In this document: one piece after another, positions 1,697-61,898 of the stretch
How positions within the stretch are numbered: position 1 is the stretch's first letter
Layout: each line of letters begins with the position of its first letter
DNA from: a virus
Virus record (IMG/VR): IMGVR_UViG_3300047585_000208
Location: 64,001 to 128,000 of that record
Reading direction: 5' to 3' (one strand)
DNA: 64,000 bases
Notes under the pieces: model-generated
The model's input: only the letters and a program-made list of their open reading frames with translations
Told to the model about the DNA's origin: nothing
Database searches by the model: none
Position numbers and translations under genes: made by a program

Positions 1697-1748
1697 AAGT
1701 CTAGTTGAGTAATACGTTACTCAAACTGCCTAGTTTAACATTTTCAGA

Positions 1749-1785
1749 AAAGCCCTCTGGCGTGCCGCCAGAGGGCTTTCTTTGC
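1749..1785 (+). terminator. intrinsic terminator-like hairpin
   Basis: 14-bp stem AAAGCCCTCTGGCG/CGCCAGAGGGCTTT followed by T-rich tract. Confidence 0.75.
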
Positions 1786-2095
1786 TTCATTTGAAGTTTA
1801 GCTCGCTAAAAGGAACAGAATCGATTCTGAGCGATTCTGGAGCGTTTAAAAGGCATTCTGCTACAGATCGCGGAATGTGTTGGTATAACTTTACTCTTTG
1901 TTAAAGCTAAAACATGCCTCCGGCACAGCTCGCGAAGTGTTTCTGTTGTGGTTTGTTTTGATGTAAATCTTTTAATCTCAACGATTTACATTTACAGCTC
2001 GCGATATGTTCTTTTGTTTGTTTTTCATTTTTTCTTTTTATTTTATCTTTTCAGTTTGCCTATGCTCAACCCCTCGGCCGTAGGCCGGAGAGGGG

Positions 2096-3061
2096 TTGAG
2101 CATAGGCGAAACTGTCTTATACTCCTACGTTAGTAGGAGTAGACGATATATACCCCCCTTTGTCCTCTTACCTCTCTACCTGAGGAGTAAGCTCGTGTTT
2201 TCATCTGACATTAACTGGAGATTCAAATCTTTCCAGTCAAGAGAAGCTTTGACTATTCTGCGATCTGCGGTCTTTGCCCCTATTTTAGGAAAAGCAAAGA
2301 GTCTGTCACCAGAACAAGCTATGTGTAGAATTTTGACTCAGTGGCGAGAAACTGCAAAAGCTCTCGCAGTCTCTAATTGGCTTGCCCCCGAGAGTTTACC
2401 TATCTACAGGAACTGCAAGCCGTTTTTGGTAAACGTCCATGGCAAGTCTAAGACCTTGCCTTGTCAGTACTACCAAGTTTGCCCGTGGTGCTTTGCGAGA
2501 TCGTGTGCACGGCCCGCTACCGCTTTCCTTAGAGCCTTCTCTAAAGATGAAGGCCTTTTCTCTGCGCTTGAAGTAGAACGTATACCCGTCGCGAACTACC
2601 CACCTGCTGAGCTTAAGAAGTTCCTAGCTCACAAAAAACAAATCATGGTTGAAAGTCATGCAGCCAATAACCAATGTCGGCGCGGTTCTGTCTACACAAT
2701 CACAGCTGAGCCAGCTCTAAGGGAAGGGGTTTGGCATTGGAAGATAAGGTCTTACTTGCTAATGATAGTTAATCCAGCGATTCGCGATCTGCATACTTGG
2801 AGTAATTGGAGTTGGACTTTAATGCCTTTTCCTAGTCAGGAGGAGCTCTATCACTGTTTGTCGTCTGTGTTTAGATATCCTCGGATGCTACTGCTCAGTG
2901 AAAAGCCTGAGTTAGTAGCAGAAGCGTTAGCTGCGCGCGAGGGTTTACGTTTGCGAGAAGTTACTGGGCGCGTTCGCGCAGTACACGACAAGCTAAAGGT
3001 CAAACATGAACAAAAAGGAGCAACCGGTGTTACAAGAATTGGTACTGAAGCACTACTCTGA
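2096..3061 (+). CDS. hypothetical protein with Cys cluster (CQYYQVCPWC)
   Basis: 321-aa ORF; start uncertain. Confidence 0.65.
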   Translation: MSIGETVLYSYVSRSRRYIPPFVLLPLYLRSKLVFSSDINWRFKSFQSREALTILRSAVFAPILGKAKSLSPEQAMCRILTQWRETAKALAVSNWLAPESLPIYRNCKPFLVNVHGKSKTLPCQYYQVCPWCFARSCARPATAFLRAFSKDEGLFSALEVERIPVANYPPAELKKFLAHKKQIMVESHAANNQCRRGSVYTITAEPALREGVWHWKIRSYLLMIVNPAIRDLHTWSNWSWTLMPFPSQEELYHCLSSVFRYPRMLLLSEKPELVAEALAAREGLRLREVTGRVRAVHDKLKVKHEQKGATGVTRIGTEALL

Positions 3062-3362: not shown

Positions 3363-3628
3363 TTAACGCTGTCCAACTATTGAGCGGCGAGATTATTGGT
3401 TTTGGTTGTAGCTCTACTGGAACTAATTGTCCATATCGTCTTGTAGGGTTATTGACAGGTATAGGCTGCGCCTCAGGAGGCCCAGATTACGAGGCTGGGC
3501 AGTGGGACGGGACTGGTGAAGGTTCTGGATCTTCTCTTGGGTGTCTGGCTTTTGTTGAGCCCACTGCTGGGTATGGGAGGGGCTGGGGAACGCCCGCTGG
3601 GGATGGACTTTGTACAGGAACTAGTTGA
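3344..3628 (+). CDS. small Gly-rich protein
   Basis: GxG repeats; AGGAGG RBS; stop TGA is the start of a palindrome. Confidence 0.7.
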   Translation: MERSEVINAVQLLSGEIIGFGCSSTGTNCPYRLVGLLTGIGCASGGPDYEAGQWDGTGEGSGSSLGCLAFVEPTAGYGRGWGTPAGDGLCTGTS

Positions 3629-3656
3629 GTAATGCATTACTCAGAAAGGCGTTACT

Positions 3657-3941
3657 GTGACAAAAACAATTTACCGCCAAAACTGTACCTCTTTGGGTGA
3701 CGGAGTTGGCGACTTTGAGGACCATATGTCTGCCAGTACTGACGGATGCGGCGGACCTGACTGTCTTGCCGGGCAGCAGCATGGCGTTGGCTTCGCTAGG
3801 GGTGACGCTTCTGGCTTTGGGGAGACTACCATTAGGGGCAGCGTTTTTGGCCTTGGGCAGTTTAATGGAAAGTCATTTGGCGAAGCCAAAGGTTGGGGCG
3901 TGGGTCGTGGAGCTGTTAACGGCACAGGCCACGACGAGTAA
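3657..3941 (+). CDS. small Gly-rich protein
   Basis: GxG repeats; palindromes on both sides. Confidence 0.7.
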   Translation: MTKTIYRQNCTSLGDGVGDFEDHMSASTDGCGGPDCLAGQQHGVGFARGDASGFGETTIRGSVFGLGQFNGKSFGEAKGWGVGRGAVNGTGHDE

Positions 3942-3965
3942 GCCGTTACTCAAGAAAGGAAATTT

Positions 3966-4214: not shown

Positions 4215-4216
4215 CT

Positions 4217-5494: not shown

Positions 5495-5529
5495 AAAGTT
5501 AAGTAACGCATTACTCAAAAGGAGGAAGC

Positions 5530-7109: not shown

Positions 7110-7268
7110 ATGCTCGATTCCATAGTATTAGGCGGAATAGTGATTGGTTGTGGTTTAGGCTTGTGTGCCCTTGCTGTTGGTTTCTTTGAGCTGTTGGATT
7201 GGTCGATGGGAGAGGATGATACCGACGATGACGATCACCATCAAGGTGGCCCAGTTCTAGCTGCGTAA
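7110..7268 (+). CDS. single-pass microprotein with acidic tail
   Basis: Translated by eye: MLDSIVLGGIVIGCGLGLCALAVGFFELLDWSMGEDDTDDDDHH...; stop lies in a palindrome. Confidence 0.55.
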   Translation: MLDSIVLGGIVIGCGLGLCALAVGFFELLDWSMGEDDTDDDDHHQGGPVLAA

Positions 7269-7350
7269 TACGTTACTCAGCGCCTAGAGTCGAGGGCTAA
7301 ATCGACTAGACAGCGAGAAGCTGTTTTACGCCCGCCTATGGATTACGGCG

Positions 7351-8502
7351 ATGAGTAGCCTAATAGTCGAAGTCTGCGAAGTAGCTGATGTCGTCGATCA
7401 TCCTAATGCCGATCGAATGGCTGTAGCTAAGATTCGTGGTTGGGACGTTTGTGTAGCTAAGAATTCGGATGGCACGCCTTGGTGTAAGAAGGGGCAGAAG
7501 GTCGTCTTTTTCCCGCCTGACTCCGTTATTCCTCAAGCAGTTAGCGATAAGCACGGTGTTACAAAGTATCTGTCAAAAGGTCGTGTTCGCGTTGCAAATC
7601 TTCGTGGATTCAAGAGTTACGGCTATCTTGCTGATCTAGACGATCCGAGTTGGCCAGTTGGTAAAGACGTCGCTGAGCATTACGGTGTTACTAAGTACGA
7701 TCCGCCGATGCGGACTACCCAAGGAGACGCGGCTAAACCTCATCCGCTTTTCCACACCTATTACGACATGGAGAACATTAGAAACTTCCCAGATGTTTTC
7801 CAAGAAGGTGAAGAAGTTTATGTGACCGAGAAGATCCACGGAGAGAATTGCCGTTTAGGCCTTATTCGCGATACGAACGATAAAGGTGAAGCTGTTTGGA
7901 AGTGGATGGCCGGCACGCACGCGGTCCGGCGTAAACGTTTTTATCAAAAGCGCGATCGAGAGACTTTTGAGTTTGTCGGGCCGGCGCTCACGAGCTCGTG
8001 CTGGCAGTGTTTTAATCCTGAAATAATGCGAATGTTGCTCGATGTTAGCAAGTGCGGTTATACGCTTGAAGAATTTAGTAAGTCGGAGTATGCCGATAGA
8101 CCGCCTGCGCCGTCTGGCAATAGCGTTGTGCTCTTTGGAGAGCGATTTGGGATGCAGGATATAAAATACGGCCTCACGGACGGCAAATTCAGTTTCCGCG
8201 CTTTCGATTTGACGATTAACGGTCGGTACGTAGACTTTGAGGAGAAACTTTCTAAGTTCAAAGCTTTCGGTGTACTGCACGTTCCGTTTCTCTGGCAAGG
8301 ACCTTATAGCTTCGAGAAGATTGTCGAATTGACTGAAGGTCCTTCTTTTCTTCATAACGGACAGCCTTTCAAGGAAGGTGTTGTTGTAACTGCTGCGGTG
8401 GAGCGGTCAGTTGTTACGTCACGGAAGGTCATGAGTCGCGCTCAGCTCAAGTGTATTAGCTTCGCTTACCTGAGTCGGAAAGATGGAACTGAGGGTCACT
8501 AA
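7351..8502 (+). CDS. RNA ligase, DRB0094/Rnl2-like
   Basis: N-terminal HPNADR OB domain; motif I EKIHG; GE, FD, EGVV and K motifs. Confidence 0.9.
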   Translation: MSSLIVEVCEVADVVDHPNADRMAVAKIRGWDVCVAKNSDGTPWCKKGQKVVFFPPDSVIPQAVSDKHGVTKYLSKGRVRVANLRGFKSYGYLADLDDPSWPVGKDVAEHYGVTKYDPPMRTTQGDAAKPHPLFHTYYDMENIRNFPDVFQEGEEVYVTEKIHGENCRLGLIRDTNDKGEAVWKWMAGTHAVRRKRFYQKRDRETFEFVGPALTSSCWQCFNPEIMRMLLDVSKCGYTLEEFSKSEYADRPPAPSGNSVVLFGERFGMQDIKYGLTDGKFSFRAFDLTINGRYVDFEEKLSKFKAFGVLHVPFLWQGPYSFEKIVELTEGPSFLHNGQPFKEGVVVTAAVERSVVTSRKVMSRAQLKCISFAYLSRKDGTEGH

Positions 8503-8511: not shown

Positions 8512-8637
8512 ATGCTGGATTACTTATTTGAAACCTTTGTTTGGCTTCTAGTTTGCGGATCAGTTTTTACGATTATCTTTGTTGTCGCAGAAACCTTCTA
8601 TCACGACTACGAAGATGATGATGACTTTTTTGAGTAA
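8512..8637 (+). CDS. single-pass microprotein with acidic tail
   Basis: AAGGAGG RBS; hydrophobic run then EDDDDFFE. Confidence 0.55.
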   Translation: MLDYLFETFVWLLVCGSVFTIIFVVAETFYHDYEDDDDFFE

Positions 8638-8664
8638 TGCGTTACTCAGTTTTAAGGAGGATGG

Positions 8665-8875: not shown

Positions 8876-10998
8876 TGCGTTTATTAAAAGCAAAGTTTGT
8901 CAACTATTGCCGTCACCGGGATTTGGAGATCAACTTCAATCCCGGTTTGACGGCTATTGTCGGACCTAACGGTTCCGGTAAATCGACCATTCTTAATGGT
9001 CTAGTCTGGTGCCTCACTGGCGTAGACCGTAACGTTGGAAAGAAGGATGATAACATCAGTCTTGCTGCACTCGATCGTGAGCCGGCTGGGGTTACGGTTT
9101 GGTTTGAGCACGCTGGTGTTACTGCGGAGATGTACCGTGGACTTTATCCTTCGAAGCAGCATCTGCGCTTTGGCGATACTCTCCTAAATAAAGACAAGGA
9201 GATTCGCGTAAAGCTTCAAGAGATCCTTGGGGCTAGCGAAGACGTTCTACTCAATTACGTCTTTGTTGAGCAGCTCAAGATGTTCGCATTCATCGGTCAA
9301 AGCGATACCCAGGTCGCTCAGGCGATGGGACAGCTCTTTGGCACAGATAAAGCAGAGCGTATCTACGAGATGCTGGGAAAGCAGCAAGTTACTATTCCCC
9401 TGTCTGCCGTTGACGGAGATCAGCTCGCGATCAAGACTCAAGAAGCTGAGCAGCTGCTAGCTGAAGTCGATAGCGACCTTTTGCAGTATCAGGACATCCA
9501 AGACGGCTGGACAGAGACCCGGTCACCGCACTACACTAAGCTTCAAACTTTCAAAGAGCGACAACGCCTTTGGGAGGACTTCAATAAAACGACAGCGCAA
9601 ATAGCGGCCCCAAACGCTAAATTGGCTGAACTTCAGCCGGAGCTTTTACGTAGAAAAGCTGAATTAGAGGAGTTGAGTAATGCATTACTCAGCAGAAAGC
9701 CAGCTGTTGCCAAAGCTAAAGCCGACCAGACTGAGTGGATCCGCTATAATGCCGCGATTGGCTATCAGGCACTCAATAAAAAGAGAGAACTTGAACAGCA
9801 AGCGATCCTTAGCTCGCTGGTTGAGCCGTATAAGCCTCCAGAGTGTACACAGTTTGCTGAGGTTGACCGGACTGTAATGCTTGGTAGACAAGACGAGCTT
9901 AAACGCCGCAGACAGCTTGTTGCTGCCTGGAAAAATGGTGGCTCTGGCAAATGCCACGCCTGCGGAACTTCAGCTACTGTTATCCGAGCTAGGCTCCCAG
10001 AAGAGGAAGAAGAAATAATTGTACTTTCTGCGAGAGTTGCCCTTGACAATCAACTCTGGGATTCATATAAAGGCTATAACCAGCAACTTGAGCTTTACAA
10101 GAGGCAAAAAGACGCAGCTACTCGATCGCTCGCCGATATCCGAAAACAGCTTAATGAGATAGCTCTTCCGCCAAAGCCAGCGCAAGGCGAAGCTGAAATT
10201 AATTCGTTTCTGGAAGAACAGCAGACGTATGAGAGTGGGTTCGTGGCGCTTGAGCAGGTGTATAACCAGCTTTCAAGAACTTGTGCTGAGCTTGAAGGGC
10301 AGATCAATCAGTTGAACGCACTAGAGCAAGCTTTGGCTGACAAGATCTTTGCTATTCCTTTGATTAAGCCAGAAGAAGCGGTTGAAGCAGAGCTAAAGCT
10401 CGAAGAAGGCCGTAAGCGGGTAGAGGTAAAGCGAAACCTCCTCGCAAGGCAGCGCCTCTTGATTGAGCAGCTTAAACACGATAAGATTTCCGCTGAAAAG
10501 TACCAAGAGTACAAAAAGAAAGTTCATCGGCTTGAGGCGTTAGAGCAACACAGGGTGAAAGTCCGGGAGATTTTTCATCGAGACAACTTGCAGAAGAGAG
10601 TAGTTGAGAGTTATTTGGAGCTTCTTAAAGAAGAGATTAATCAGCATCAAGAAAGTTTTGATGCGACTTGTCGAGTCCTTGGATTCGAAGATTGGCGGTT
10701 TATTGTTAAGAAGCTTCCGGGAGGAGAGGTTCATTCAGCGTCGAGACTTTCAAAGGGTGAGCAAGCTTTATTTGCGCTAGCTTATCGAATTGTAATTAAC
10801 TCGACTTTTGCAAAGGATCTTGGCCTCCTCTGTTTAGATGAACCGACAGTGGCTTTGGACGCGGATAATAGAAGGTGTCTGGAGACTGCGCTCATAAAAC
10901 TTAGAGAACTAAGTGAGTCGCGAGGTCTTCAGGTGCTCTTGGTTACGCATGACACTGATATTGGTTCATTTGATACCGTAATCCGGCTGGAGGCCTGA
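8875..10998 (+). CDS. sbcC: SbcC/Rad50-like SMC ATPase
   Basis: Walker A GPNGSGKST; coiled coil with CHAC Zn hook; signature LSKGE; Walker B LDEPT; VTHD. Confidence 0.93.
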   Translation: MRLLKAKFVNYCRHRDLEINFNPGLTAIVGPNGSGKSTILNGLVWCLTGVDRNVGKKDDNISLAALDREPAGVTVWFEHAGVTAEMYRGLYPSKQHLRFGDTLLNKDKEIRVKLQEILGASEDVLLNYVFVEQLKMFAFIGQSDTQVAQAMGQLFGTDKAERIYEMLGKQQVTIPLSAVDGDQLAIKTQEAEQLLAEVDSDLLQYQDIQDGWTETRSPHYTKLQTFKERQRLWEDFNKTTAQIAAPNAKLAELQPELLRRKAELEELSNALLSRKPAVAKAKADQTEWIRYNAAIGYQALNKKRELEQQAILSSLVEPYKPPECTQFAEVDRTVMLGRQDELKRRRQLVAAWKNGGSGKCHACGTSATVIRARLPEEEEEIIVLSARVALDNQLWDSYKGYNQQLELYKRQKDAATRSLADIRKQLNEIALPPKPAQGEAEINSFLEEQQTYESGFVALEQVYNQLSRTCAELEGQINQLNALEQALADKIFAIPLIKPEEAVEAELKLEEGRKRVEVKRNLLARQRLLIEQLKHDKISAEKYQEYKKKVHRLEALEQHRVKVREIFHRDNLQKRVVESYLELLKEEINQHQESFDATCRVLGFEDWRFIVKKLPGGEVHSASRLSKGEQALFALAYRIVINSTFAKDLGLLCLDEPTVALDADNRRCLETALIKLRELSESRGLQVLLVTHDTDIGSFDTVIRLEA

Positions 10999-16822: not shown

Positions 16823-17057
16823 TGTGATTTTTATGTTGACTGCGGTTTTCGGACAGCTGTTGGTATTTGGAGCCGGTTATATGTTGTGTCGGCAATGCTT
16901 GGTACACGAGTATCGGATGCGAGCGTTGAAGTATCCGACTAAGACTTTTGCTGAGCTTACGGCTAGGTTTAATCGATTACCTAGTCGAGCAAAGATGATA
17001 TGGGCGTTGAACAAATTTGATTGGGACGAGTACTTGAATGGGTCGGACGCTAGTTGA
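16815..17057 (+). CDS. small membrane protein
   Basis: AGGAGGAG RBS; hydrophobic N-terminus. Confidence 0.55.
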   Translation: MGSVIFMLTAVFGQLLVFGAGYMLCRQCLVHEYRMRALKYPTKTFAELTARFNRLPSRAKMIWALNKFDWDEYLNGSDAS

Positions 17058-17084
17058 GTAACGTATTACTCAGAAAGGAGAAGG

Positions 17085-17381: not shown

Positions 17382-17417
17382 AAAGTTAAGTAACGCATTA
17401 CTCAGAAAGGAGGATAA

Positions 17418-17660
17418 ATGGCAGAAATAATTCACCGACAGGGTTGTGACTCGTCTGGGGTCGGTGGTGACTACGACGATTTCCTGTCTACGACTTTATA
17501 TGGTGCTGGTGGTCCAGATTTAGGTGCTGGAGATGTTACCGGTACTGGAAGCGACGCTGGCACTGGCGCAGGTTGTGGATTTTCTAACTTTTCGTATAGG
17601 GGTTCCGGAGCTGGGTATGGACGTAGCCATGGTAATGCCTATTTCTCTGGTATGGGCTGA
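17418..17660 (+). CDS. small Gly-rich protein
   Basis: AAGGAGG RBS; palindromes on both sides. Confidence 0.72.
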   Translation: MAEIIHRQGCDSSGVGGDYDDFLSTTLYGAGGPDLGAGDVTGTGSDAGTGAGCGFSNFSYRGSGAGYGRSHGNAYFSGMG

Positions 17661-17691
17661 GTAACGCATTACTCAGAAAAGAGAACTAATA

Positions 17692-20925: not shown

Positions 20926-21044
20926 GTTCCACTGTATTAATTTAAGTTTGTTTTATTTGAGTAATGCGTTACTCAACTTTTGGCGTAGAGGAATTATTCG
21001 CCAGTTAATTGACACTAGTAAACTGATTTCTTAAGGAGATTTTT

Positions 21045-23869: not shown

Positions 23870-24050
23870 GCCACGTGAGCCTAAACACACGGTTCAACGG
23901 CATTGGACGTTCTTTTGGGATACCGAGTTATCCGAGAAGCGGATGATTGAGATATCCGAGTGGATCGGGTCCTTATCTTTGGAAGACAGAGGTAAGCTCA
24001 CAGACCTAATGAAAGATCATACGGAAGATATTAACTTCCAGGAATTTTGA
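23847..24050 (+). CDS. hypothetical protein
   Basis: GGAGGAGG RBS; stop in a degenerate palindrome. Confidence 0.5.
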   Translation: MRLRKLSKPREPKHTVQRHWTFFWDTELSEKRMIEISEWIGSLSLEDRGKLTDLMKDHTEDINFQEF

Positions 24051-24083
24051 GTAACGCATCAATCAATCTTAAAGGAGCGGTTA

Positions 24084-24353: not shown

Positions 24354-24406
24354 CTGAGCCCGTTTGAGGACATTTGAGTAGCACATTACTCAGAAAGGGG
24401 TAGTCG

Positions 24407-25188: not shown

Positions 25189-25433
25189 ATGTTCTTTCAG
25201 CCGGTCGTGGAGATGGTACTGGCCCGGCGGATAGAGAGGTTTACGCTATTTGCGCTTATGGAAGCCCATCGGAAAGCTCTGGCTACGGGTGTGGGCAAAT
25301 CAATGCCGGCGGCTCGAAAGATGCAACAGGAGAAGCTACTGGTAAGATTTGTTCTGGAATAGGTTCAATAACTGGTTATGCGTACGGCGTAGGCGTAGGT
25401 TCTGGTTGTGTGAATATGACCGGTTTAGGCTGA
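25182..25433 (+). CDS. small Gly-rich protein
   Basis: GxG repeats; stop in a palindrome. Confidence 0.7.
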   Translation: MLDVLSAGRGDGTGPADREVYAICAYGSPSESSGYGCGQINAGGSKDATGEATGKICSGIGSITGYAYGVGVGSGCVNMTGLG

Positions 25434-25507
25434 GTAATGCATTACTCAATTTCTCGTCAGAGAATCATCTGACGCTTATCTAAATTTCATCCAGTAAGGA
25501 GTCTGCT

Positions 25508-25813: not shown

Positions 25814-25852
25814 CGCTAATTGAGTAACGCATTATTCAAAAGGAGCGGCGCA

Positions 25853-29299: not shown

Positions 29300-29505
29300 T
29301 GGGTGCCTGGGGCGAGTTCATTTCTTGTGAGTTAGTATTTGCGCTTATTTTTGGGCTTGTTGGCTATGGACTTGGTGAAAGCGCCAGAGCCGTTTCTTTT
29401 GGGGTGGCTTTTGGCCTGACTTTCGGTTTGCTTGTTCTTGGTGGTGGTACGCCGGCTGTTGAAGAAGTAGAAGACGAGCCAGTTGAAACTCCTAAACCTG
29501 AGTAA
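29299..29505 (+). CDS. small membrane protein with acidic tail
   Basis: Two hydrophobic segments; GAGGAGG RBS. Confidence 0.6.
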   Translation: MGAWGEFISCELVFALIFGLVGYGLGESARAVSFGVAFGLTFGLLVLGGGTPAVEEVEDEPVETPKPE

Positions 29506-29557
29506 TGCATTACTCAAACCCTTGGTAGAGGGTTTTTATCTACCAGAAGGGGCGGCT

Positions 29558-29862: not shown

Positions 29863-29981
29863 GCTTCGACTTGCTTGATCTTGAACAGCAACGAAAATGT
29901 TTTCATTACACGAAGCTTCAACCGTTATGGGCGGCTGATAATCATCGCAAGGGAAAACGCGCTCAAAGAAGTATTAAAGAC

Positions 29982-31567: not shown

Positions 31568-31659
31568 AAGGAGGAATTACGAGCGTACCAATAGTCTCTG
31601 GTCGTTACTGGTGCACTTATCGCAGTAGTTGAGTAACGCATTACTCAAAAGGAGAAAGT

Positions 31660-32942: not shown

Positions 32943-33428
32943 TTGCCAAAGAATCCTTATCGAGAGAAGTCGAACCACCAGCAGGCTGTGGAGCTTTTTC
33001 TTAAGGGCGCTGGGCACGATATCCCAGACAGGCCAATGCTAGCGCCCCAGAAAAAGTTGATCGCTCAGGTGAAGATTTTGTTTGAAGAGGCGCTTGAGCT
33101 GGCTGACGCTGTTGGGATCGACGTCCTGGTTGACGAGATTCCGATTACGAAGAACTCGCTTGAGTTCGACGCAGATATTAATGAGTCGGATTTTGTGGAT
33201 GTTGTTGACGGGGCTTGCGATGTGATGGTCGTCGCTACCGGGTTTCTTTCGCTGTGTGGGGTTTCGGATGTTGGTGTTCAGGCAGAGGTGGATACCAATA
33301 ATTTGCTGAAGCTCGATGGCGGAAAAATGAACGGGGCTGGGAAGTTTAAGAAGCCAAAGGGGCATCCGAGGCCGGAGCTGAAGGCTAGGCTGCTTGAGCA
33401 GGGCTGGCAGAAACCAATCGGCGAGTAA
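32943..33428 (+). CDS. MazG/PRA-PH-like NTP pyrophosphohydrolase
   Basis: EEALEL, DGACD and NNLLK...GKFKKP motifs. Confidence 0.8.
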   Translation: MPKNPYREKSNHQQAVELFLKGAGHDIPDRPMLAPQKKLIAQVKILFEEALELADAVGIDVLVDEIPITKNSLEFDADINESDFVDVVDGACDVMVVATGFLSLCGVSDVGVQAEVDTNNLLKLDGGKMNGAGKFKKPKGHPRPELKARLLEQGWQKPIGE

Positions 33429-33449
33429 CGCATTACTCAAGGAGCGGTC

Positions 33450-34997: not shown

Positions 34998-35669
34998 ATG
35001 AGGGTAGGAGCAGCAGAAGTAATTATTCTTGGTGGCAATGAAATGGCCGATGGCTATGTCCACCTAGAACACGAGACGCAATATACTTTGCGAATCTTGA
35101 ATCACTTTAACCGGCGCGTAGACGCTGAAGTCCGGATTGACAATAAGGATCAGGGCGCTTACCGCGTTGAAGCATTCCGCGCGATTCAGCTGGAGCGCCC
35201 GAGTCACGAAAACGGAAGGTTTACATTTTTCAGAGTTGGTACAGCCGAAGCCGCTCAAGCTGGCGCTGAAAAGATCGATAACCAAGACCGCGGCCTCGTT
35301 CAGGTCACATTCAAAGTTGAGAAGGCCCCCGTTGTCGTGCCAATAAGCAGACGTGGAGCTGGTGGCTCATGCGCCGGTGGTAGACCAGACAGCTGGGCCT
35401 ATACTGGTGGTGTGCGCGGTCAATCCATGAATTGCGCTTCATCGCTAACTTCTGGCGGTGTGCTCGGAGTTGCGGGGGCTCCAGCAGCCTCGGCCGGTAT
35501 AACTGGTCTCACAGGCCATAGCAAGCAATCCTTTGTCGAAGTCAAGGAGCTCGACTATGACGAGGCAGCTACTGTAGTAGTTACGCTCCGTCTCGTCGAG
35601 ACTACGAACACTGTTCGCGAGCTTGGTGAGGCTCACAAAGGTAATCCAGTGCCCCAGCCAGTTGGTTGA
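34998..35669 (+). CDS. hypothetical protein
   Basis: Strong RBS; stop in a palindrome. Confidence 0.75.
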   Translation: MRVGAAEVIILGGNEMADGYVHLEHETQYTLRILNHFNRRVDAEVRIDNKDQGAYRVEAFRAIQLERPSHENGRFTFFRVGTAEAAQAGAEKIDNQDRGLVQVTFKVEKAPVVVPISRRGAGGSCAGGRPDSWAYTGGVRGQSMNCASSLTSGGVLGVAGAPAASAGITGLTGHSKQSFVEVKELDYDEAATVVVTLRLVETTNTVRELGEAHKGNPVPQPVG

Positions 35670-35747
35670 GTAACGCATTACTCAAATTTCGGCGTAGATT
35701 ATAAATCCGCCGCATACGAATCATCGATTTTCAGTTGTGATTATTAA

Positions 35748-38702: not shown

Positions 38703-38747
38703 AATTAAGCTGTATTCGTTTCGTTATTAAGTAAGGCATTACTCATT

Positions 38748-40648: not shown

Positions 40649-40715
40649 ATCGTCAGTCTGAATTTCTCTTAGTTCTGAGTAACGCATTACTCGGTTTTAA
40701 AAGGAGTACTGTTTT

Positions 40716-41304: not shown

Positions 41305-41340
41305 TTGAGTAATGCATTACTCAATTTTGAAAGGAGACCT

Positions 41341-41622
41341 GTGTTAGTTGCGAGCATGTTAGAAAACGGAGACGGCCTTTCTAACGGAAGTGGGCCGTAT
41401 AAAGAACACTGGCGTTCGCGGCTCAGTTATGCCGATTATGGCCGGCCTAACGGTACTGGCTATGGCGACGGAATGATTGGAGGTTACGGTGATCGTGCCA
41501 TGACGGGGTATGGTGCTGGAAACTCGGCGGAGTGTTTTGGAAATGGAATAGGACAAGGTCAGAGTGGCGGTCAAGTTATTTTTACTTCCGATCTCGGAGT
41601 TCACTGTATAAGTTTTACCTAA
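41341..41622 (+). CDS. small Gly-rich protein
   Basis: AAGGAG RBS, GTG start; palindromes on both sides. Confidence 0.7.
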   Translation: MLVASMLENGDGLSNGSGPYKEHWRSRLSYADYGRPNGTGYGDGMIGGYGDRAMTGYGAGNSAECFGNGIGQGQSGGQVIFTSDLGVHCISFT

Positions 41623-41656
41623 GTAACGCATTACTCAACTTCAAAGGAGCAGCATT

Positions 41657-44582: not shown

Positions 44583-44644
44583 TGAGTAATGCATTACTCA
44601 AAAGATTGATTTTCTGAAGCAGCTCTCTAAAAGGAGTTTGAATC

Positions 44645-46498: not shown

Positions 46499-46705
46499 AT
46501 AAGGTTGGAAAGATCGAAGTTGGCGTGACTCCTGTCGAAGAGCACGATGGTGAGAAGGTTGCTGGAGAGCAGTTGGAAGATCATCTCATGACTAGGTTGG
46601 CTGAAAAGGTGGAGAAGAAAAGCGCTGAAGTTGGGCAGCGGAGCATTAAAGACAAGTAGAATGAGTTGAGTAACGCATTACTCAACTTTCTATTTGGAGC
46701 TAGTT

Positions 46706-48645: not shown

Positions 48646-48678
48646 TTGAGTAACGCATTACTCAGGAGGGGAATTTTA

Positions 48679-49431: not shown

Positions 49432-51153
49432 GTGACTACAGCGTGTATCGCGCCGTCTACTGCAGCTTTCAAAAAGCCTCGCAGTAATCGCCAGTCGAAC
49501 TCATCAGTCATCTGGTCATATTCTGCGAGTAAGCCTCTTACGAATTTGGACGTTATCGAGGATCAGTTCCATCGTGGGTATCAGCTTCGGCGTAATCTTG
49601 TCAGGCTTGAAAATGACCGCAGGAAAAAGCAGCAAGAACTCAGGCAGAAGACTTATCCAAGGCTCATTGAGCTTGAAGAAGCTTTGATCCCGATTGAGAA
49701 AGAAATTCTCGCGATTGAAGGCGGCATTAAGGTTGCACAGAACTCTGAAACGCTTATTAAGTTGAAGGCCGCGCGAAAGCCGTTTCTGGATGAGAAGAGT
49801 AAGCTTGAGGTTGACCTTAGCCTTAATCTGGTATTTCAAGGGGCAGCCGGGATTATCGACAATGCATCAGACGTTTTGAAGAATAACGCTTGTTCTGAAA
49901 GCGGGCTCTACCCAGCAAACATTCAGCAAGTTATCCAGACGGTTAAAAGGACAGGGCTAGCTCCGATCATTGAGCCCGAGTACACCGGTGAAGGAAAAAT
50001 TGCAGTTTATCTACCAGAGGGGCTGTCTCCGGCAGCTTTGTTTGCCGGGCAAAATCGGCTTATCCGGGTAGACCCTGTACCAGCTACCGCCTATGGGCCA
50101 AGACAACCCCACGAGATTGTTGGGCCGACTATTCCGAATCCACGCCGAACGAAAGCTTTCCTGCGAGTCGGGAGAACTGACGCGGAGGCTGTTTGGGCTG
50201 AAATTCCAGTTTTGCTGCATAGACCGTTCCCAGAGGATTGTGCTATTCGGCAGGTTTGGCTGAGTCGGAAAAAGAGCGGGTATAAGTCTGAGTGGAAATT
50301 GCAGTTCACTTGTTGGCACAATCTTACCCGGAAGCGGGCAGATAAAGGTGTTGTTGGGATTGATTTAGGGTGGCGTAAACTCCCGACTGGGCTTCGAGTT
50401 GCTTATTGGGCTGGAGACGACGGTCAGGCTGGCGAGATTGTTATTCCGAATGCACGAATTCATCAGCTTGATCTTGCAGACAACATCGATAGCGAGCGGA
50501 TTGAGATTTGCGCTGAAGAGACTTTGAATCTCAAAAACTGGATTAGCAACCATGCCGTTCCTAATTGGTTGACTGTAGATAGTGTTCCTGAGACGCTCAA
50601 AGGGCTTTTTGATATGGTGTCTGCTTGGATGAGTAATCGATTTGCAGGTGACGAAGCAATTTTCGATCAGCTTATGGCTTGGCGTAAGGAAGAGATGAAA
50701 CTCGCTAATTGGGCAGCTAATCAAAGGAAGAACTTCCAAAATTGGCGCAAGCAGTTTTTCCTGGATCACGTTAGCGATTCAAGAGCGGTTGGTGCCTTTG
50801 CAAAGCTTGCGCAGCGATACCGAACTGCGGTTGTTGAAGATAATCGGCATACACCCCCAAGGCTGAAGGTTCAAGATCGGGGCTTCTCAGAGAAAGAGCG
50901 TGTACAATATCGAAATATTGCTGGTGTGGGGTTGTTTAGCGATATTCTTCGGGACCGCTTGATTGTTAAAGCTGTCCAGGTTCAAAATGCTGCGGTTATG
51001 TGCCATGAGTGCCACCGCATCTGCAAGTGGGAGCAGGTTGAGCTGAAGCATAAGTGTGAGCATCCGGGCTGTCGGGCTGAGTGGGATCAAGATTACAACA
51101 CGAGTAGGAATTTGCTTGCAATCGGTCTTGAAGAGGAAGATAGGGCTGAGTAA
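49432..51153 (+). CDS. Cas12m (type V-U1/C2c4)-like TnpB-superfamily protein
   Basis: Collinear motifs EDQF...LRRNLV, GLYPAN, YTGEGKIAV, LRVG...WAEIPVLLHRPFP, RuvC-I GIDLGWR, RuvC-II VVED, Zn finger, RuvC-III DQDYN. GTG start after AAGGAG. Confidence 0.75.
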   Translation: MTTACIAPSTAAFKKPRSNRQSNSSVIWSYSASKPLTNLDVIEDQFHRGYQLRRNLVRLENDRRKKQQELRQKTYPRLIELEEALIPIEKEILAIEGGIKVAQNSETLIKLKAARKPFLDEKSKLEVDLSLNLVFQGAAGIIDNASDVLKNNACSESGLYPANIQQVIQTVKRTGLAPIIEPEYTGEGKIAVYLPEGLSPAALFAGQNRLIRVDPVPATAYGPRQPHEIVGPTIPNPRRTKAFLRVGRTDAEAVWAEIPVLLHRPFPEDCAIRQVWLSRKKSGYKSEWKLQFTCWHNLTRKRADKGVVGIDLGWRKLPTGLRVAYWAGDDGQAGEIVIPNARIHQLDLADNIDSERIEICAEETLNLKNWISNHAVPNWLTVDSVPETLKGLFDMVSAWMSNRFAGDEAIFDQLMAWRKEEMKLANWAANQRKNFQNWRKQFFLDHVSDSRAVGAFAKLAQRYRTAVVEDNRHTPPRLKVQDRGFSEKERVQYRNIAGVGLFSDILRDRLIVKAVQVQNAAVMCHECHRICKWEQVELKHKCEHPGCRAEWDQDYNTSRNLLAIGLEEEDRAE

Positions 51154-51229
51154 TGCATTACTCAAATGCCACAGCAGAGGCTAAAGTATCTGCTGGACTT
51201 TCAACTCCTTCTAATTGCATGAGCTGATT

Positions 51230-55555: not shown

Positions 55556-55599
55556 TCTTCCTGAGTTGAGTAATGCATTACTCAGAAGGAGCACTGGCA

Positions 55600-56558: not shown

Positions 56559-56560
56559 AC

Positions 56561-58324: not shown

Positions 58325-58418
58325 TCTGAATTTGCAGAGTTGAGTAATGCATTACTCAACTCTGCTACCTTACAATAATGAATAGGGGTCGATTTGTTAT
58401 TTGTAGCCGGTGAGAACT

Positions 58419-60155
58419 ATGCCTTTTAAGAGCAAAGCCCAGCAAAGGTGGATGTTTGCCGCAGAATCTCGCGGTGAAGTGGCTAAGGGTACGGCCAAAG
58501 AGTGGGCTCACGCTACGAAGAGCATAAAAGCACTACCTGACCACGCAAAGAAAAAAAAGCATAAGAAGAAAGCTTCTGAGATAAAGCTCTTTCAGCAAGC
58601 AGGTTTAGTAAAGCTATCTTGGCCTGCTCCGCAACAAAGTCAGCCTCAGGCTCTTGGAGCACCTTTGCTACAAGCTCAGCCTAACCCAGCTCAGCAAACT
58701 CAAGCAGCCCCAACTCCTCAGCCCATTGGGGCTTCGCAGCAAAGTCCGCCTGGGCAGCCTAAGCCGTCTGTAATTGGTGCTACTCCACCAACGCAGGCTA
58801 GCCCGCATTTGCAGCGTCATCAAGCAATCAACGGAATGTTGGGCGTTCCGACCGCCAAAATGGCTGCGGTAAGAAATGAAATCTACAATAAAGTCAACAC
58901 GGGGCGTATTCCAGTTGCTGAAGCTCTTGCAAAGGTAGCTTCGCAGGTTAAGCAGTCTGATTGGCCTTATCAAGGCGGCGTGTACGGAACATTTCCTGGA
59001 AGCGGTGGTATGCCTGGGGGCATGGGAATGCTTCCGCCAGGGATGATGGGTGGATACCCTGGATTTCCTCAAGACCCCTATACAACTGCATTAGGCCAAC
59101 TCGATCAGCGAAGAAGGGTTTTGTCTGAGCGTTTTTATAACGGTCCCATGACACCAGAGCAATATCAAACCTCTATCCGCGACCTTGAGACTCGCCAGAA
59201 TGTGTTGCGGCAAGAGACTTACGGTAATCAGGGTAACGCGGGACGTGGTCAGCCTGGCTATGCGCAACAAGGCGCTAGACAGCTGCCAGCAGAGTATCAG
59301 CAGCAATTTCAAAGAAATCAAGCAGCGCACGATAGGGCCGTTGAGTTAGCTCGTCGGCAAATTACGACCCCTGGTCGTTTGTCGCAGCTTGAGCAGTTTA
59401 ATCCGCAGCTTTTTGAACAACTTCGACAAGAGTTTACTCCACCCGGGGTTGACCCAATGTCCGTTGATCAGCAGTTTAACGACTACATTTCTGGCCGAGG
59501 ACAGCTGCCAGCTAATAACCGTATTTCGAACGAAGTTCGGCAACAGTTGCGGCAGTTCACGGCTACGAGTCCTTATGTAGCTCAAATGCGACAACAGCCG
59601 TGGTACAACCAGATACCGCAAGCAGAGAGAGCCGAGGCTGAACAAAACTGGATTAATAACCAAGTTCAAAATCCTTCTCTGCAGCAAGTTCAAGGTGATC
59701 CTGAGCACCAAAGGCACTTAAACGCCGGATCGCAGCAGCAGCAACAGCTCGCTAGAGATGTTGAAGCCCATCTGCGCGACCCTGCTTCTCAGAACTGGTC
59801 TCAGACTGCACAGAGTTGGCAGCAGTATTGGCAGCCGACAGGAACTGGGGCCTACAGTGCACCTAGTCAGCCAGCTGGTGGGTCTTCTTTTGCGATAGCC
59901 AGGTCAGCTCCAGCAACTAACGCAACTTCTAATAATGGCTGGAGTGCGGGTGGTGGAAGTTGGAATGGTGCGGCTTCTGCACCAGTTGCAGCGCAACCAC
60001 AATCGCCACCTGCAGCACAAATTCAACCACAGCAAGCTGCACAGGCTCCGTCGCAACAACCGGCACAACCTGTACAGCAAGCTCCTGCTTCTGTAATGCC
60101 TACTGCGCCGAGTGCTCCTACTGCAGCTAGACCTGTACCTCACTGGACAAGTTGA
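58419..60155 (+). CDS. Q/P/G-rich low-complexity protein, probable virion component
   Basis: MPFKSKAQQRWMFA N-terminus; KxA motifs. Confidence 0.65.
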   Translation: MPFKSKAQQRWMFAAESRGEVAKGTAKEWAHATKSIKALPDHAKKKKHKKKASEIKLFQQAGLVKLSWPAPQQSQPQALGAPLLQAQPNPAQQTQAAPTPQPIGASQQSPPGQPKPSVIGATPPTQASPHLQRHQAINGMLGVPTAKMAAVRNEIYNKVNTGRIPVAEALAKVASQVKQSDWPYQGGVYGTFPGSGGMPGGMGMLPPGMMGGYPGFPQDPYTTALGQLDQRRRVLSERFYNGPMTPEQYQTSIRDLETRQNVLRQETYGNQGNAGRGQPGYAQQGARQLPAEYQQQFQRNQAAHDRAVELARRQITTPGRLSQLEQFNPQLFEQLRQEFTPPGVDPMSVDQQFNDYISGRGQLPANNRISNEVRQQLRQFTATSPYVAQMRQQPWYNQIPQAERAEAEQNWINNQVQNPSLQQVQGDPEHQRHLNAGSQQQQQLARDVEAHLRDPASQNWSQTAQSWQQYWQPTGTGAYSAPSQPAGGSSFAIARSAPATNATSNNGWSAGGGSWNGAASAPVAAQPQSPPAAQIQPQQAAQAPSQQPAQPVQQAPASVMPTAPSAPTAARPVPHWTS

Positions 60156-60191
60156 GTAATGCGTTACTCAACTTTACGACTGGACTTTGAT

Positions 60192-61808
60192 ATGCTTCAG
60201 CAAGATAAATTGCCTGAGACCTTGGCCAAAGCCGCTTCTCACTTGAAGAAGGCGGATCCTCCGTATAGCCCTTATGGCTATCCCCCCATGGGCTATCAGC
60301 CAATGGGCTACGGAATGCCTCAGCAATCCTTTACGCCGTATAACCCTTATGGCGGCTGGACTACTCCCGGTGGTTACGGTGGTCCAACTACAAGCGGCCA
60401 GGGCCAAAATCCCGCTTCAACGGGTGGTGGTGTTGTTCAGCAGCTTGCTAATACTGCCGCATCCAACGCGTATCGTCCGTCCTACGACGCGCAGCGCGAG
60501 CTCAACGATTTGAACGAGGCTCGAACAAACTACACTATTCGCCCCGATCAACATCCAACATCTACTGTTGGTAGAACTGACATCGATAAAGCTCTACAGC
60601 AACTTCGCGATATGGCACAGAATGTAAGTTTGTCCAGTAATGCGGAGGCTAGCTCGGTAACTGATCCGGTCACGGGAAAACCAGTTAGTTTGATGCATTC
60701 GCAATCTTCTATTCCGTGGCTCAATATCAGTAGTGAGTGGTGGAAAGGTGATAACTGGAGAGCATATCAAAAAGCCAAATCAGAGTATCAGACTCTCGCT
60801 GACCGGTACAAGGAGCAGCGAACCAAGGCTTTGCCGCAGATTCAGTCGAATCTCGATCAGCGCCGGCGAATGGTGCAGAATCAAATGCAACAAGGGCGGC
60901 AGCTTGAAAATCGTTCGCTTGATACTGCAATGGGTCGTGAACAAAACATGTACGATCAAGCCCAAGGCTGGAATACCGCCCACATGCAGCGATTTATGAA
61001 TCCGCCAGGGATGCCACCGATGGGCGGGATAGGTGGTGGAGTTGGGGGTGGGATGGGTGCAACTGGCGGTATGCCTCATTTGCCGCACCTGGGTGGCGGT
61101 GGGATGACAAGAAGCGCTAGCTTTACTGAGAGTCTGGCGAAGTGCGCAGCTGAAGTTCAAGATACTGACAGCGCTTCTCCAATTGTTGCCGGTGCTTTAG
61201 CAGGAGCTCCTGCTCTCGCTGGCGCTGCCCATCAAATGAATTGGTCCGTTCCGCAGGCGCTTAAAGGTATGTCTGCTGCAGGTGGGCTCATGGGAACGGC
61301 TTCCGGAGCCATGGGTAACAGAGTTGGAGCAGACATCGGGTCTGCTATGGCTGTTCCAAAGCTCGTACAAGAAGCTCTAGCTCTTTCTAAGGCTCAACCT
61401 GTTGTTAAACCAGGAATGACCTTCTCTCACGATCTTGGCACAGCCGCCCGTAATGCCTCAATGATGACTGGCCGAGCTGGAGCTGTTGGCCAGGAGCTTG
61501 GTAAGTATAAAGGCCTTGGAGCGGCTCTAGCTGGAGTACTAGCTCCTCAAGGCGCTTATGCTGCTCGAAAGGGTATTGATAAGCTCCGCGGTAAAGACGA
61601 GAAGAAAGCTTCAATTGGCGAGTGCGAAACTCCTCCTTGCCATAAGAACATCCCAATGGCTGGGCGAATGGCAACGAAACAGCCAATGGCTAAGAAAAAG
61701 CCCAGTGATCCGTTTACCTCAGTAATGCGAGACATGAAAGAGAACAAGATGGCAGCTCTTGACCGTATTACAGAAGAGGCAATTCGAGTAATGCATTACT
61801 CAAAATAA
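60192..61808 (+). CDS. G/M/P-rich protein, probable virion component
   Basis: Shares LAKxA motifs with the preceding gene. Confidence 0.65.
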   Translation: MLQQDKLPETLAKAASHLKKADPPYSPYGYPPMGYQPMGYGMPQQSFTPYNPYGGWTTPGGYGGPTTSGQGQNPASTGGGVVQQLANTAASNAYRPSYDAQRELNDLNEARTNYTIRPDQHPTSTVGRTDIDKALQQLRDMAQNVSLSSNAEASSVTDPVTGKPVSLMHSQSSIPWLNISSEWWKGDNWRAYQKAKSEYQTLADRYKEQRTKALPQIQSNLDQRRRMVQNQMQQGRQLENRSLDTAMGREQNMYDQAQGWNTAHMQRFMNPPGMPPMGGIGGGVGGGMGATGGMPHLPHLGGGGMTRSASFTESLAKCAAEVQDTDSASPIVAGALAGAPALAGAAHQMNWSVPQALKGMSAAGGLMGTASGAMGNRVGADIGSAMAVPKLVQEALALSKAQPVVKPGMTFSHDLGTAARNASMMTGRAGAVGQELGKYKGLGAALAGVLAPQGAYAARKGIDKLRGKDEKKASIGECETPPCHKNIPMAGRMATKQPMAKKKPSDPFTSVMRDMKENKMAALDRITEEAIRVMHYSK

Positions 61809-61898
61809 ATTTGACGTTTGAATTTCGTTTTAATAAGTTAAGAGCTGAGTAATGCATTACTCAGCTCTTTTCGTTTTCGTTCAGAGGAATTACTCTTT

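Follow-up and report, generated by a model that had tools for sequence, protein, structure and literature searches.

The stretch of DNA analysed here, a 64,000-nucleotide segment that we call the window, comprises bases 64001-128000 of a 137,890-bp viral record in IMG/VR (IMGVR_UViG_3300047585_000208), which is classed as linear and which CheckV rates as 67% complete, so that about one third of the genome is missing. Gene calls were made with a crude custom script, which renders the junction counts below approximate; they place 151 of 158 genes on the plus strand and 88% of the DNA in coding sequence, leaving about 12% (15,986 bases) non-coding. Most proteins of this phage have no matches, and the phage is very divergent. 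The window carries a replication module with an RNA ligase, SbcC- and SbcD-like proteins, helicases, a primase, a family-A DNA polymerase with a UDG-like domain and a UvsX-like recombinase. Other window genes encode a Thg1-like enzyme, a nucleotide phosphatase and glycosyltransferases, and there are TnpB-type genes as well. Elsewhere in the contig are tail and baseplate genes and a minus-strand terminase, along with a further RNA ligase, a Ro60/TROVE protein and a divergent sigma-70-family factor. Our subject is the element that lies between these genes throughout the contig, a palindrome of the form TGAGTAA-N4-TTACTCA.

A sharply bounded family of palindromes

Sites were counted at up to two mismatches to TGAGTAA-N4-TTACTCA and compared with dinucleotide-preserving shuffles, 100 of them for exact matches. 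The window holds 20 exact copies, against 0.00 in the shuffles, and 32 sites overall (20, 11 and 1 with zero, one and two mismatches), against a shuffle mean of 0.16 and a maximum of 2. An initial annotation of the window had described about 32 copies between 1706 and 61863 with near-invariant arms and variable centres, and this description holds: the first copy spans 1706-1723 and the last 61846-61863, and all six of the centres that it listed (TGCA, CGCA, TGCG, TACG, CGTA and GCCG) are present, joined by CACA and GGCA. The whole 137.9-kb contig carries 62 sites (41, 18 and 3 with zero, one and two mismatches), one per 2.2 kb, with 24 mismatches in 868 arm positions. A third mismatch admits 16 further matches in the contig, but because 14 of them lie within coding sequence this class looks like chance, and the family appears sharply bounded.

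Conservation extends over about 20 bp, Y-TGAGTAA-YGCR-TTACTCA-R, and this unit holds roughly 33 bits of information by our own column sum, a value inflated by the selection of sites. Position 0, just before the left arm, is T in 40 and C in 18 of the 62 sites, and position 19, just past the right arm, is A in 43 and G in 18 and thus a purine in 61. Outside this unit the profile of the 62 sites shows no conservation upstream and, downstream, only an A-rich Shine-Dalgarno (SD) context. Within it, the arm positions that vary are the two outer ones of the left arm. The centre is CGCA at 26 sites, TGCA at 19, TGCG at 8, GGCA at 3 and something else at six others, none of the 62 having CGCG; the central G9 is kept in 57 and C10 in 61. 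The spacer is constant: all 41 exact copies have 4 bp between the arms, and none was found with 0-3 or 5-10 bp, which sets the centres of the half-sites 11 bp apart, or about one helical turn. Isolated half-sites number none for the left arm and one for the right in the whole contig; an apparent intergenic surplus of right half-sites proved to be an artefact of sites cut at gene ends, with that one genuine half-site left over. The closest pair of copies lies 61 bp apart, and copies stand singly, not as inverted pairs. Spacings of 257-407 bp between copies occur 10 times, and many single small open reading frames (ORFs) are bracketed by two copies.

Copies lie mostly in the gaps between genes

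Fifty-seven of the 62 sites lie outside called ORFs, and their density is about 3.6 per kb where the DNA is non-coding, compared with 0.04 per kb where it is coding; the motif is far from equally frequent inside genes. At 39 sites an open frame of at least 40 codons is closed within -15 to +7 nucleotides (nt). As the initial annotation had remarked, the stop codon is often the motif's own: it ends an open frame of at least 40 codons at 29 sites in the contig and 15 of the 32 in the window, through TGA at position 1 in 12 cases and TAA at position 5 in 17. Its further remark that AAAGGAG and a start often follow is also borne out: 33 of the 62 contig sites and 17 of the 32 window sites have, 3-30 nt past the motif, an SD-like word and a start codon that opens an ORF of 30 or more codons. 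The start is at exactly 12-14 nt in 20 of these 33, and the SD begins 1-6 nt past the motif. Upstream stop and downstream start occur together at 24 sites, and 29 copies have no SD and start nearby. Genes that end in motif stops are most readily explained as a by-product of a compact genome and of a motif with stop codons in two out of three reading frames on each strand. As for the 12-14-nt distance to starts, it could reflect either the packing of stop, site, SD and start into a compact genome or a function of its own.

Four near-perfect copies lie within ORFs, in frames that permit them. Those in the SbcC-like gene (window 9674) and in an ORF of 568 residues read SNALL in the sole stop-free frame, and those in an ORF of 889 residues and at window 61785 read RVMHYS with TGA changed to CGA, so that the reading frame stays open. 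A fifth, with two mismatches in a minus-strand ORF, may be chance.

A tandem array of five paralogous genes of about 95 residues has a palindrome copy and an SD ahead of each gene. The units measure 316-322 bp, the closest two are 72% identical, and one copy is decayed, in the left arm alone. With a copy at the head of each unit, the array shows at the least that copies were duplicated along with the genes. An AlphaFold model of this family has a mean predicted local distance difference test score (pLDDT) of 58, which is low confidence. Apart from this array, the ORFs of the cassettes are not paralogues.

No sign that the arms are conserved as a base-paired stem

A perfect inverted repeat can be read as a duplex or folded as a single strand. 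As a hairpin the palindrome is weak, at -5.0 kcal/mol as RNA and -3.7 to -4.3 kcal/mol as DNA, five of its seven stem pairs being A-T; the commonest variant, in which G2 has become A at 8 sites, reaches -1.2 kcal/mol as RNA and -2.0 kcal/mol as DNA. Native surroundings do not help it to fold, as the stem pair probability is 0.672 natively and 0.673 once the flanks are shuffled (n = 59, p = 0.30). Compensatory changes are absent from all 21 variant sites. The flanking positions 0 and 19 are mirror images in composition but show no covariation (Watson-Crick pairs number 33, with 33.0 expected; Fisher p = 1), a combination that is predicted by two half-sites read independently and not by a paired stem. 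A G-T wobble on the template strand that left-arm variants had seemed to keep was dropped as a candidate feature, as DNA folding gave -2.0 kcal/mol on both strands. In all of these respects we see no sign of selection for base pairing.

How such selection looks in the same genome can be seen from a second family of intergenic hairpins, whose perfect 7-bp G+C-rich stems occur in at least six versions that differ by compensatory changes, with similar loops of 6-10 nt and no T run. These hairpins often lie 2-7 nt past a palindrome copy and about 60 nt ahead of the next start, and could be terminators that lack a U tract or, alternatively, 5' leader hairpins. Counting all hairpins of -7 kcal/mol or better, 11 of the 62 copies have one that begins at most 7 nt downstream. 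Strong terminators lie 3, 28 and 77 nt past three copies, and other copies stand 0-35 nt behind a terminator (genome positions 15583, 108583 and 112647; window 40676). Since copies occur on both sides of terminators, they are neither terminators themselves nor tied to one side of them. The G+C-rich stem and T run that characterise an intrinsic terminator are likewise no property of the family, in which two of 62 copies (genome 110667 and 125846) combine a lengthened stem with a T run. The copies within ORFs and those on both sides of terminators suit a DNA site more readily than they do a signal for translation or processing.

The palindrome belongs to the phage

The motif scan beyond the phage that the initial annotation had suggested bears out its specificity. 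The exact palindrome was found in no other IMG/VR contig. Three distant relatives, with DNA polymerases of at most 33% identity, contain near-matches no more often than matches to a reversed control pattern, a de novo search for dispersed palindromes in their three loci found none, and searches with the terminase and a structural protein gave no relatives. The one repeat that came up in L011, on a distantly related viral contig of 115.6 kb (G002), is an array of clustered regularly interspaced short palindromic repeats (CRISPR) at L011:14400-15900, with at least 21 repeats of about 36 nt. Among 185,579 species genomes, one genome per species, there were 12 single matches in 12 genomes against about 35 expected by chance in 596 Gb, and no bacterial genome in this set is enriched for the palindrome. 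The motif belongs to the phage; none of the represented species has it as a host repeat.

A metagenome scan returned 59 loci with the 18-mer, none of which has flanking DNA in common with the phage. About two thirds of these loci (among L017-L075, chiefly JAAUXW01... and JAAUYA01... contigs) represent a longer repeat that resembles a miniature inverted-repeat transposable element (MITE) and has the 18-mer at its core, in tandem pairs spaced by 29 or 38 bp within longer inverted repeats, on contigs of 33-42% G+C with few ORFs; at one locus, L041, 7 copies with centre CGCG form an array. We dropped the 59 loci as unrelated, since none shares flanking DNA and most hold this different, MITE-like repeat on A+T-rich contigs with few ORFs.

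Contigs from one DNA run, possibly the source sample, cover the phage at a uniform depth of about 12.5 and include nine joints with sides of 20-28 nt. Sides this short mark the joints as other copies of the motif, not deletion variants, and no deletion variants ending at copies were found in these contigs. One contig of this run joins window 29866 to 31024 and so omits most of the first TnpB gene, its side being only 28 nt. A run search with a 9.2-kb stretch of the phage matched no RNA run and this DNA run only.

Gene content and individual copies

Protein families were sought by comparing the 149 called proteins of at least 60 residues with Pfam, PHROGs and NCBIfam, and the genes that bear on the palindrome or its surroundings are placed in Table 1 with the window copies. 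The Ro60/TROVE protein, the two RNA ligases and the Thg1-like enzyme resemble an RNA-repair set; Rfam yielded no Y RNA or other family besides one tRNA. Among the three TnpB-type genes, one is of IS605 type (OrfB_IS605 with a Cas12f1-like TNB domain), one stands behind a serine-recombinase gene as an IS607-like pair, and one is partial. The phage probably infects a member of Planctomycetota, as hinted by a DUF1559 protein whose N terminus bears a prepilin-type methylation motif and by a weak match to a Planctomycete cytochrome c.

Searches for enzymes that might act at the palindrome gave little. The RNA polymerase profiles PF00940 and PF00623 matched nothing in six frames, a weak blank since the PF00940 control also matched nowhere. 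Motif scans of the large ORFs for RNA polymerase were negative, the large proteins have no PHROG matches, and sequence searches of the PDB with the proteins of 1333 and 1539 residues found nothing useful; the 1539-residue protein is nearest to tail-sheath clusters, which is a lead only. The Y1 (HUH) transposase profile PF01797 likewise matched nothing in six frames of the incomplete contig, with a control that matched in 10 of 14 genomes. An ORF of 101 residues behind a double site had no usable Atlas match. Sigma-70-like promoter matches numbered 15 against 18.4 in shuffles, in one 20-kb section of about seven in the contig.

Table 1. Copies of the palindrome in the window and other features of the contig. 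Plain positions are those of the window; genome positions are those of the whole record; arm positions in brackets are numbered within the motif.
Feature	Position	Form	Context
Palindrome	1706..1723	exact, centre TACG	145-codon frame ends 11 nt upstream; strong terminator hairpin 28 nt downstream
Palindrome	3626..3643	exact	own TGA closes 95-codon frame; SD and GTG 13 nt downstream
Palindrome	3935..3952	1 mismatch (C at 1), centre GCCG	own TAA closes 102-codon frame; SD and ATG 13 nt downstream
Palindrome	5500..5517	1 mismatch (A at 2)	stop 7 nt upstream; SD and ATG 12 nt downstream
Palindrome	7262..7279	1 mismatch (C at 3)	own TAA closes 60-codon frame; no start within 30 nt
Palindrome	8631..8648	exact	own TAA closes 44-codon frame; SD and ATG 16 nt downstream
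Palindrome	9674..9691	exact, within SbcC-like gene	in-frame LSNALLS at residue 267 of 707; family match spans whole protein
Palindrome	17055..17072	exact, centre CGTA	own TGA closes 89-codon frame; SD and TTG 12 nt downstream
Palindrome	17387..17404	1 mismatch (A at 2)	stop 7 nt upstream; SD and ATG 13 nt downstream
Palindrome	17658..17675	exact	own TGA closes 80-codon frame; DNA polymerase ATG 16 nt downstream
Palindrome	20958..20975	exact	34 nt past polymerase stop; second-family hairpin 5 nt downstream
Palindrome	24048..24065	2 mismatches, right arm	own TGA closes 67-codon frame; SD and ATG 18 nt downstream
Palindrome	24375..24392	1 mismatch (G at 7), centre CACA	SD and ATG 14 nt downstream
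Palindrome	25431..25448	exact	own TGA closes 111-codon frame; hairpin 6 nt downstream
Palindrome	25821..25838	1 mismatch (T at 15)	stop 9 nt upstream; SD and ATG 14 nt downstream
Palindrome	29499..29516	exact	own TAA closes 72-codon frame; hairpin 2 nt downstream
Palindrome	31630..31647	exact	SD and ATG 12 nt downstream
Palindrome	33422..33439	1 mismatch (C at 1)	own TAA closes 178-codon frame; SD and ATG 10 nt downstream
Palindrome	35667..35684	exact	own TGA closes 223-codon frame; second-family hairpin 5 nt downstream
Palindrome	38728..38745	1 mismatch (A at 2), centre GGCA	strong terminator hairpin with T run 2-3 nt downstream
Palindrome	40676..40693	1 mismatch (G at 18)	terminator-like hairpin ends 35 nt upstream; SD and ATG 22 nt downstream
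Palindrome	41306..41323	exact	SD and GTG 17 nt downstream
Palindrome	41620..41637	1 mismatch (A at 2)	TAA at positions 1-3 closes 125-codon frame; SD and ATG 19 nt downstream
Palindrome	44583..44600 (genome 108583)	exact	terminator tail ends 3 nt upstream; next called start 44 nt downstream
Palindrome	46667..46684 (genome 110667)	exact, extended stem and T-rich run, terminator-like	SD and ATG 21 nt downstream
Palindrome	48647..48664 (genome 112647)	exact	0 nt past terminator tail (T run); SD and ATG 14 nt downstream
Palindrome	51147..51164	exact	own TAA closes 588-codon frame; second-family hairpin 7 nt downstream
Palindrome	55567..55584	exact	SD and ATG 15 nt downstream
Palindrome	58341..58358	exact, symmetry extended by 7 more pairs	no start within 30 nt
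Palindrome	60153..60170	exact	own TGA closes 582-codon frame; next ORF listed from ATG inside motif
Palindrome	61785..61802	1 mismatch (C at 1), last codons of 549-residue ORF	in-frame RVMHYSK-stop; C removes in-frame TGA
Palindrome	61846..61863 (genome 125846)	exact, 6 extra pairs (4 G+C-rich) and T run	terminator score -15.5 kcal/mol
Second hairpin family	20981-21003, 25455-25474, 29523-29545, 35690-35712, 51172-51195		window members
Second hairpin family	genome 4096, 49385, 51803, 52613, 61405, 131374, 137203 (L005, L007, L008, L009)		members elsewhere in the contig
Five-gene tandem array	L007:17240-18900 (genome 53239-54900)
tRNA-Gly (UCC)	L006:19672-19742 (genome 36671-36741)		ends 6 nt before a palindrome copy; the contig's single tRNA
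Sigma-70-family factor	L006:15037-15771 (genome 32036-32773)	245 residues	in structural block, directly behind a palindrome copy
RNA ligase, Rnl2-like	7351-8499
RNA ligase, T4 Rnl1-like	L007:13445-14569
Thg1-like 3'-5' polymerase	37038-37925
Ro60/TROVE protein	L009:6646-8352 (genome 133645-135354)	with vWA domain
TnpB-type genes	29871-31139; 62227-63000 plus 62982-63998; 3-986	three genes
DUF1559 protein; weak cytochrome c match	L007:10849-11739 (genome 46848-47741); L007:2766-3452
9-bp tandem repeat run	L005:100-260		left end of contig; probably repetitive coding sequence cut by contig end

Discussion

Altogether we favor, tentatively and at a probability of roughly 45%, a model in which the repeat is a duplex DNA site for a homodimeric, sequence-specific phage protein that regulates transcription across gene junctions. 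The two 7-bp arms would be half-sites, and the binder would probably be encoded by the phage and may lie in the unsequenced third of its genome. From sites in the short gaps between co-directional genes, after the stop of one and ahead of the ribosome-binding site of the next, a bound dimer would stand in the way of RNA polymerase at some 40% of junctions. We envision a genome-wide switch on read-through transcription, acting as a roadblock or insulator by analogy with stoperators, through which one factor could control a long co-directional array. Protein binding, the dimeric state and the effect of binding are what we infer here from the sites themselves. An operator for a dimeric regulator was one of three functions that the initial annotation had proposed, and it gains from the constant spacer, the mirror-image flanks, the lack of compensatory changes, the copies retained in ORFs, the sharp edge of the family, the weak hairpin, the position of copies on both sides of terminators and the specificity of the motif to the phage, while it loses from the fact that no binder was found. 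There is precedent for the model in the Cluster O mycobacteriophages, where, in the part of the report that deals with their repeat, its symmetry led the authors to the same idea of a dimeric protein (PMC4351075).

Several observations weigh against this model. The centre is not strand-symmetric, as CGCA occurs 26 times and its reverse complement TGCG 8 times. An ATG across positions 7-9 is found on the plus strand at 27 of 62 sites and on the minus strand at 50 (discordant sites 8 versus 31, p = 0.0003), and arm mismatches number 19 on the left and 5 on the right (p = 0.007). The sharp spacing of starts would also suit a role at the RNA level. Finally, the family searches of the 149 proteins produced no candidate binder, giving just the divergent sigma-70-family factor and the helix-turn-helix of TnpB, and a more permissive Pfam search of 89 small proteins contributed none. 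Because the phage is so divergent and the contig 67% complete, this absence of a recognised binder is weak evidence. We suggest two causes that may explain the strand asymmetry in part, avoidance of upstream ATGs in messenger RNA and overlap of the left arm with coding sequence. Such overlap explains roughly half of the arm bias, which falls to 9 versus 5 (a hand count) when 10 sites are set aside at which the left arm is part of an ORF or forms its stop. Avoidance of ATGs is not borne out by the counts, as centres that bear an ATG are not clearly rarer near starts, at 11 of 29 sites near a start and 16 of 33 otherwise.

The strongest challenge comes from the RNA, where the palindrome could form a junction signal, a hairpin with a 7-bp stem and a 4-nt loop in polycistronic messenger RNA that a sequence-specific protein binds as a translational repressor or activator at the adjacent ribosome-binding site, as an antiterminator acting on the following hairpin, or as a site-specific endoribonuclease. 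Such a signal would suit the near-uniform orientation of the genes and the plus-strand-specific asymmetry of the motif, the tight distances to SD and start, the further hairpins close behind 11 copies, the two copies that have grown into hairpin-plus-T-run terminators, the conserved G9 and C10 of the loop and the many RNA-handling genes of the phage. We nonetheless rate it as unlikely, given the weakness of the stem, above all in the 8 A2 sites, the failure of native flanks to aid folding, the lack of compensatory change and of covariation at the stem base, the mirror-image flanks that it leaves unexplained, the four in-ORF copies with no start behind them and the 29 copies that are not beside a start. 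The RNA hairpin of the initial annotation is thus a possible structure but a feeble one. A wider version, in which the palindrome is no passive operator but a junction module with several functions and a fixed strand, recognised by a phage factor through its nucleic-acid structure, has a modest chance, a minority view that we take seriously: it would be either a protein-bound RNA hairpin that at some 40% of junctions links translation termination, by way of stops in two frames, to transcript processing or antitermination and to loading of the ribosome-binding site that follows, or a template-strand hairpin promoter for an unrecognisable polymerase, and it draws on the plus-strand asymmetry, the purine at position 19 and the 12-14-nt distance to starts. 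At the other extreme, a hairpin that works by structure alone, with no protein, and either shields transcripts between cistrons from 3' exonucleases or weakly terminates or pauses transcription, strikes us as very improbable. Its position directly after stop codons would match that of bacterial repetitive extragenic palindromic elements (REPs), and the two terminator-like copies would be natural extensions of it, but some 33 bits of conservation with no compensatory change would be unexpected, as the contrast with the second hairpin family illustrates, and -5 kcal/mol is a poor barrier, with a T run in two copies only.

At the DNA level, the chief competitors of a regulator-binding site are recombination and transcription initiation, both of them improbable. 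Copies could serve as short homologies for the gain, loss and duplication of cassettes, as has been proposed for the stem-loops of T4-type phages (PeSLs), or could be a selfish palindrome spread by a REP-associated tyrosine transposase (RAYT) or one of IS200/IS605 type. The small ORFs bracketed by two copies at recurrent short spacings and the in-frame copies within four ORFs, which look as 18-nt insertions would, are in line with this, as are the three TnpB-type genes and the serine recombinase; in Cluster O, insertions and deletions were explained by recombination between repeats, according to the relevant part of the report (PMC4351075). The recombination site proposed in the initial annotation also has indirect support from the five-paralogue array, in which each unit has its own copy, intact or decayed. 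However, there are no terminal features or target duplications, conservation stops at positions 0 and 21, no Y1 transposase turned up in six frames, copies are single and not in inverted pairs, 18-20 bp of homology is short for general recombination, the nine joints in contigs of the DNA run are other copies and not deletions, cassette ORFs outside the array are not paralogous, and placement is too regular, with the stop inside the motif and the SD at a fixed distance. A promoter for a phage-specific RNA polymerase, either of the single-subunit type that reads duplex DNA or of the N4 type that reads a template-strand hairpin, with initiation at the purine past the right arm, is less probable still. 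The information content and the density of one site per 2.2 kb would fit, as would the purine in 61 of 62 sites, the lack of enrichment of sigma-70-type matches in the section examined and the several copies that lie between a strong terminator and an SD with no space for another promoter; moreover, the N4 enzyme melts two foot pairs of a 7-bp promoter stem (PMC4496689), and here the two outer left-arm positions vary. Yet no polymerase emerged from profile, PHROG or motif searches (the PF00940 blank being weak), and the 1539-residue protein lies nearest to tail-sheath clusters, if only as a lead. Three copies would fire into terminators 3, 28 and 77 nt away, a single motif serving structural, replication and small uncharacterised genes would leave no temporal classes, the leader would run only a few nt ahead of the SD, and the 4-nt loop and A+T-rich stem differ from the 3-nt loop and G+C-rich heptamer given for N4 (PMC4496689).

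The phage is uncultured, large and from peat, and the function of similar repeats has never been established. If the binder of the palindrome is found, the two would make a compact and highly specific protein-DNA (or protein-RNA) pair and offer a handle on the timing of expression in such phages, which lack recognisable promoters. The motif is also a sharp marker for the rest of this phage and for its relatives in metagenomes.

A literature search with the motif string found no paper that contains it, and several known systems resemble the palindrome in part. The hairpin promoters of the N4 virion RNA polymerase number three and have 5-7-bp stems, a 3-nt loop and a G+C-rich core, the polymerase itself being encoded by a giant gene (PMC4496689). 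Like the palindrome, these promoters are short inverted repeats just upstream of a transcribed region with a conserved hairpin sequence, and in that account the foot pairs are dispensable as pairs; here the loop has 4 nt, the stem is 5/7 A-T, and 62 copies are spread across all gene modules. Stoperators, in Cluster A mycobacteriophages, are dozens of short intergenic sites at which the bound protein blocks transcription elongation; they are asymmetric and are read in one orientation by a monomeric repressor, in temperate phages. The palindrome instead is dyad-symmetric, flanks included, with strand bias at the centre only, and the repressor and integrase that stoperator phages have were not found as families among the 149 proteins of this divergent and 67% complete contig. 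The promoter early stem-loops (PeSLs) of T4-type phages bracket shuffling small ORFs and come with an early sigma-70 promoter; in our profile no position upstream of the motif is conserved, and in the one 20-kb section scanned sigma-70-like matches numbered 15 against 18.4 in shuffles. REPs are imperfect palindromes that follow stops, occur in hundreds per host chromosome and are mobile as inverted pairs through a Y1 transposase; of such systems, in which REP doublets forming hairpins (REPINs) are paired with a RAYT, we found no PF01797 in six frames of the incomplete genome, single copies and no enriched genome. The start-associated sequences of Clusters K and EF contain the ribosome-binding site, whereas our motif ends 1-6 nt before the SD and has no start at 29 of 62 copies. 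The conserved inverted repeats of phiC31 are a more distant comparison.

Cluster O phages are actinobacteriophages with genomes of about 70 kb, whereas the phage described here is large and carries nearly all of its genes on one strand. Judged by its anatomy and placement, the palindrome is a further case of the dispersed inverted repeats known from Cluster O and from the Cluster EG phages of Microbacterium, in an unrelated and very divergent phage: it has inverted arms with a fixed spacer and 62 near-invariant copies, most of them intergenic, and occurs in no other IMG/VR contig and only at chance level in the represented species genomes. The stoperators and PeSLs that the initial annotation had named as partial precedents are not the closest ones; the repeats of Cluster O (17 bp) and Cluster EG (18 bp) come much nearer. 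The part of the Cluster O report on the repeat describes 17 bp with invariant 7-bp arms and a 3-bp spacer, in 34 copies in Corndog; its authors infer a dimeric DNA-binding regulator and note that repeats coincide with insertions and deletions, the function not being established (PMC4351075). Set beside that description, the palindrome likewise has two 7-bp arms, near-invariant here, a short variable spacer, more than 30 copies, many of them in short intergenic gaps, and is absent from other phages, the Cluster O repeat being described as absent from its host as well. It differs in its 4-bp spacer and unrelated sequence, in lying well inside genes at 4-5 of 62 sites against about one third in Corndog, and in having stops and a strand bias at the centre, whereas the repeat described for Cluster O has no embedded stops and no meaningful orientation bias. 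The Cluster EG repeat, in the part of the report devoted to it, is an 18-bp inverted repeat of 8-10 copies located 14-22 bp upstream of starts and conserved while the surrounding DNA diverges, its function not being established; unlike the palindrome, the copies described are confined to one genome end and have a 2-bp spacer and an unrelated sequence (PMC7302621). Relative to both, the palindrome has more copies, is almost exclusively intergenic, and possesses built-in stops and a centre with strand bias. With 62 copies in 138 kb, almost all of them intergenic, it is the densest and cleanest case among those compared, and its occurrence in a phage unrelated to the actinobacteriophage clusters suggests that this arrangement arose repeatedly, as a general means of controlling or punctuating co-directional gene arrays in large phages.

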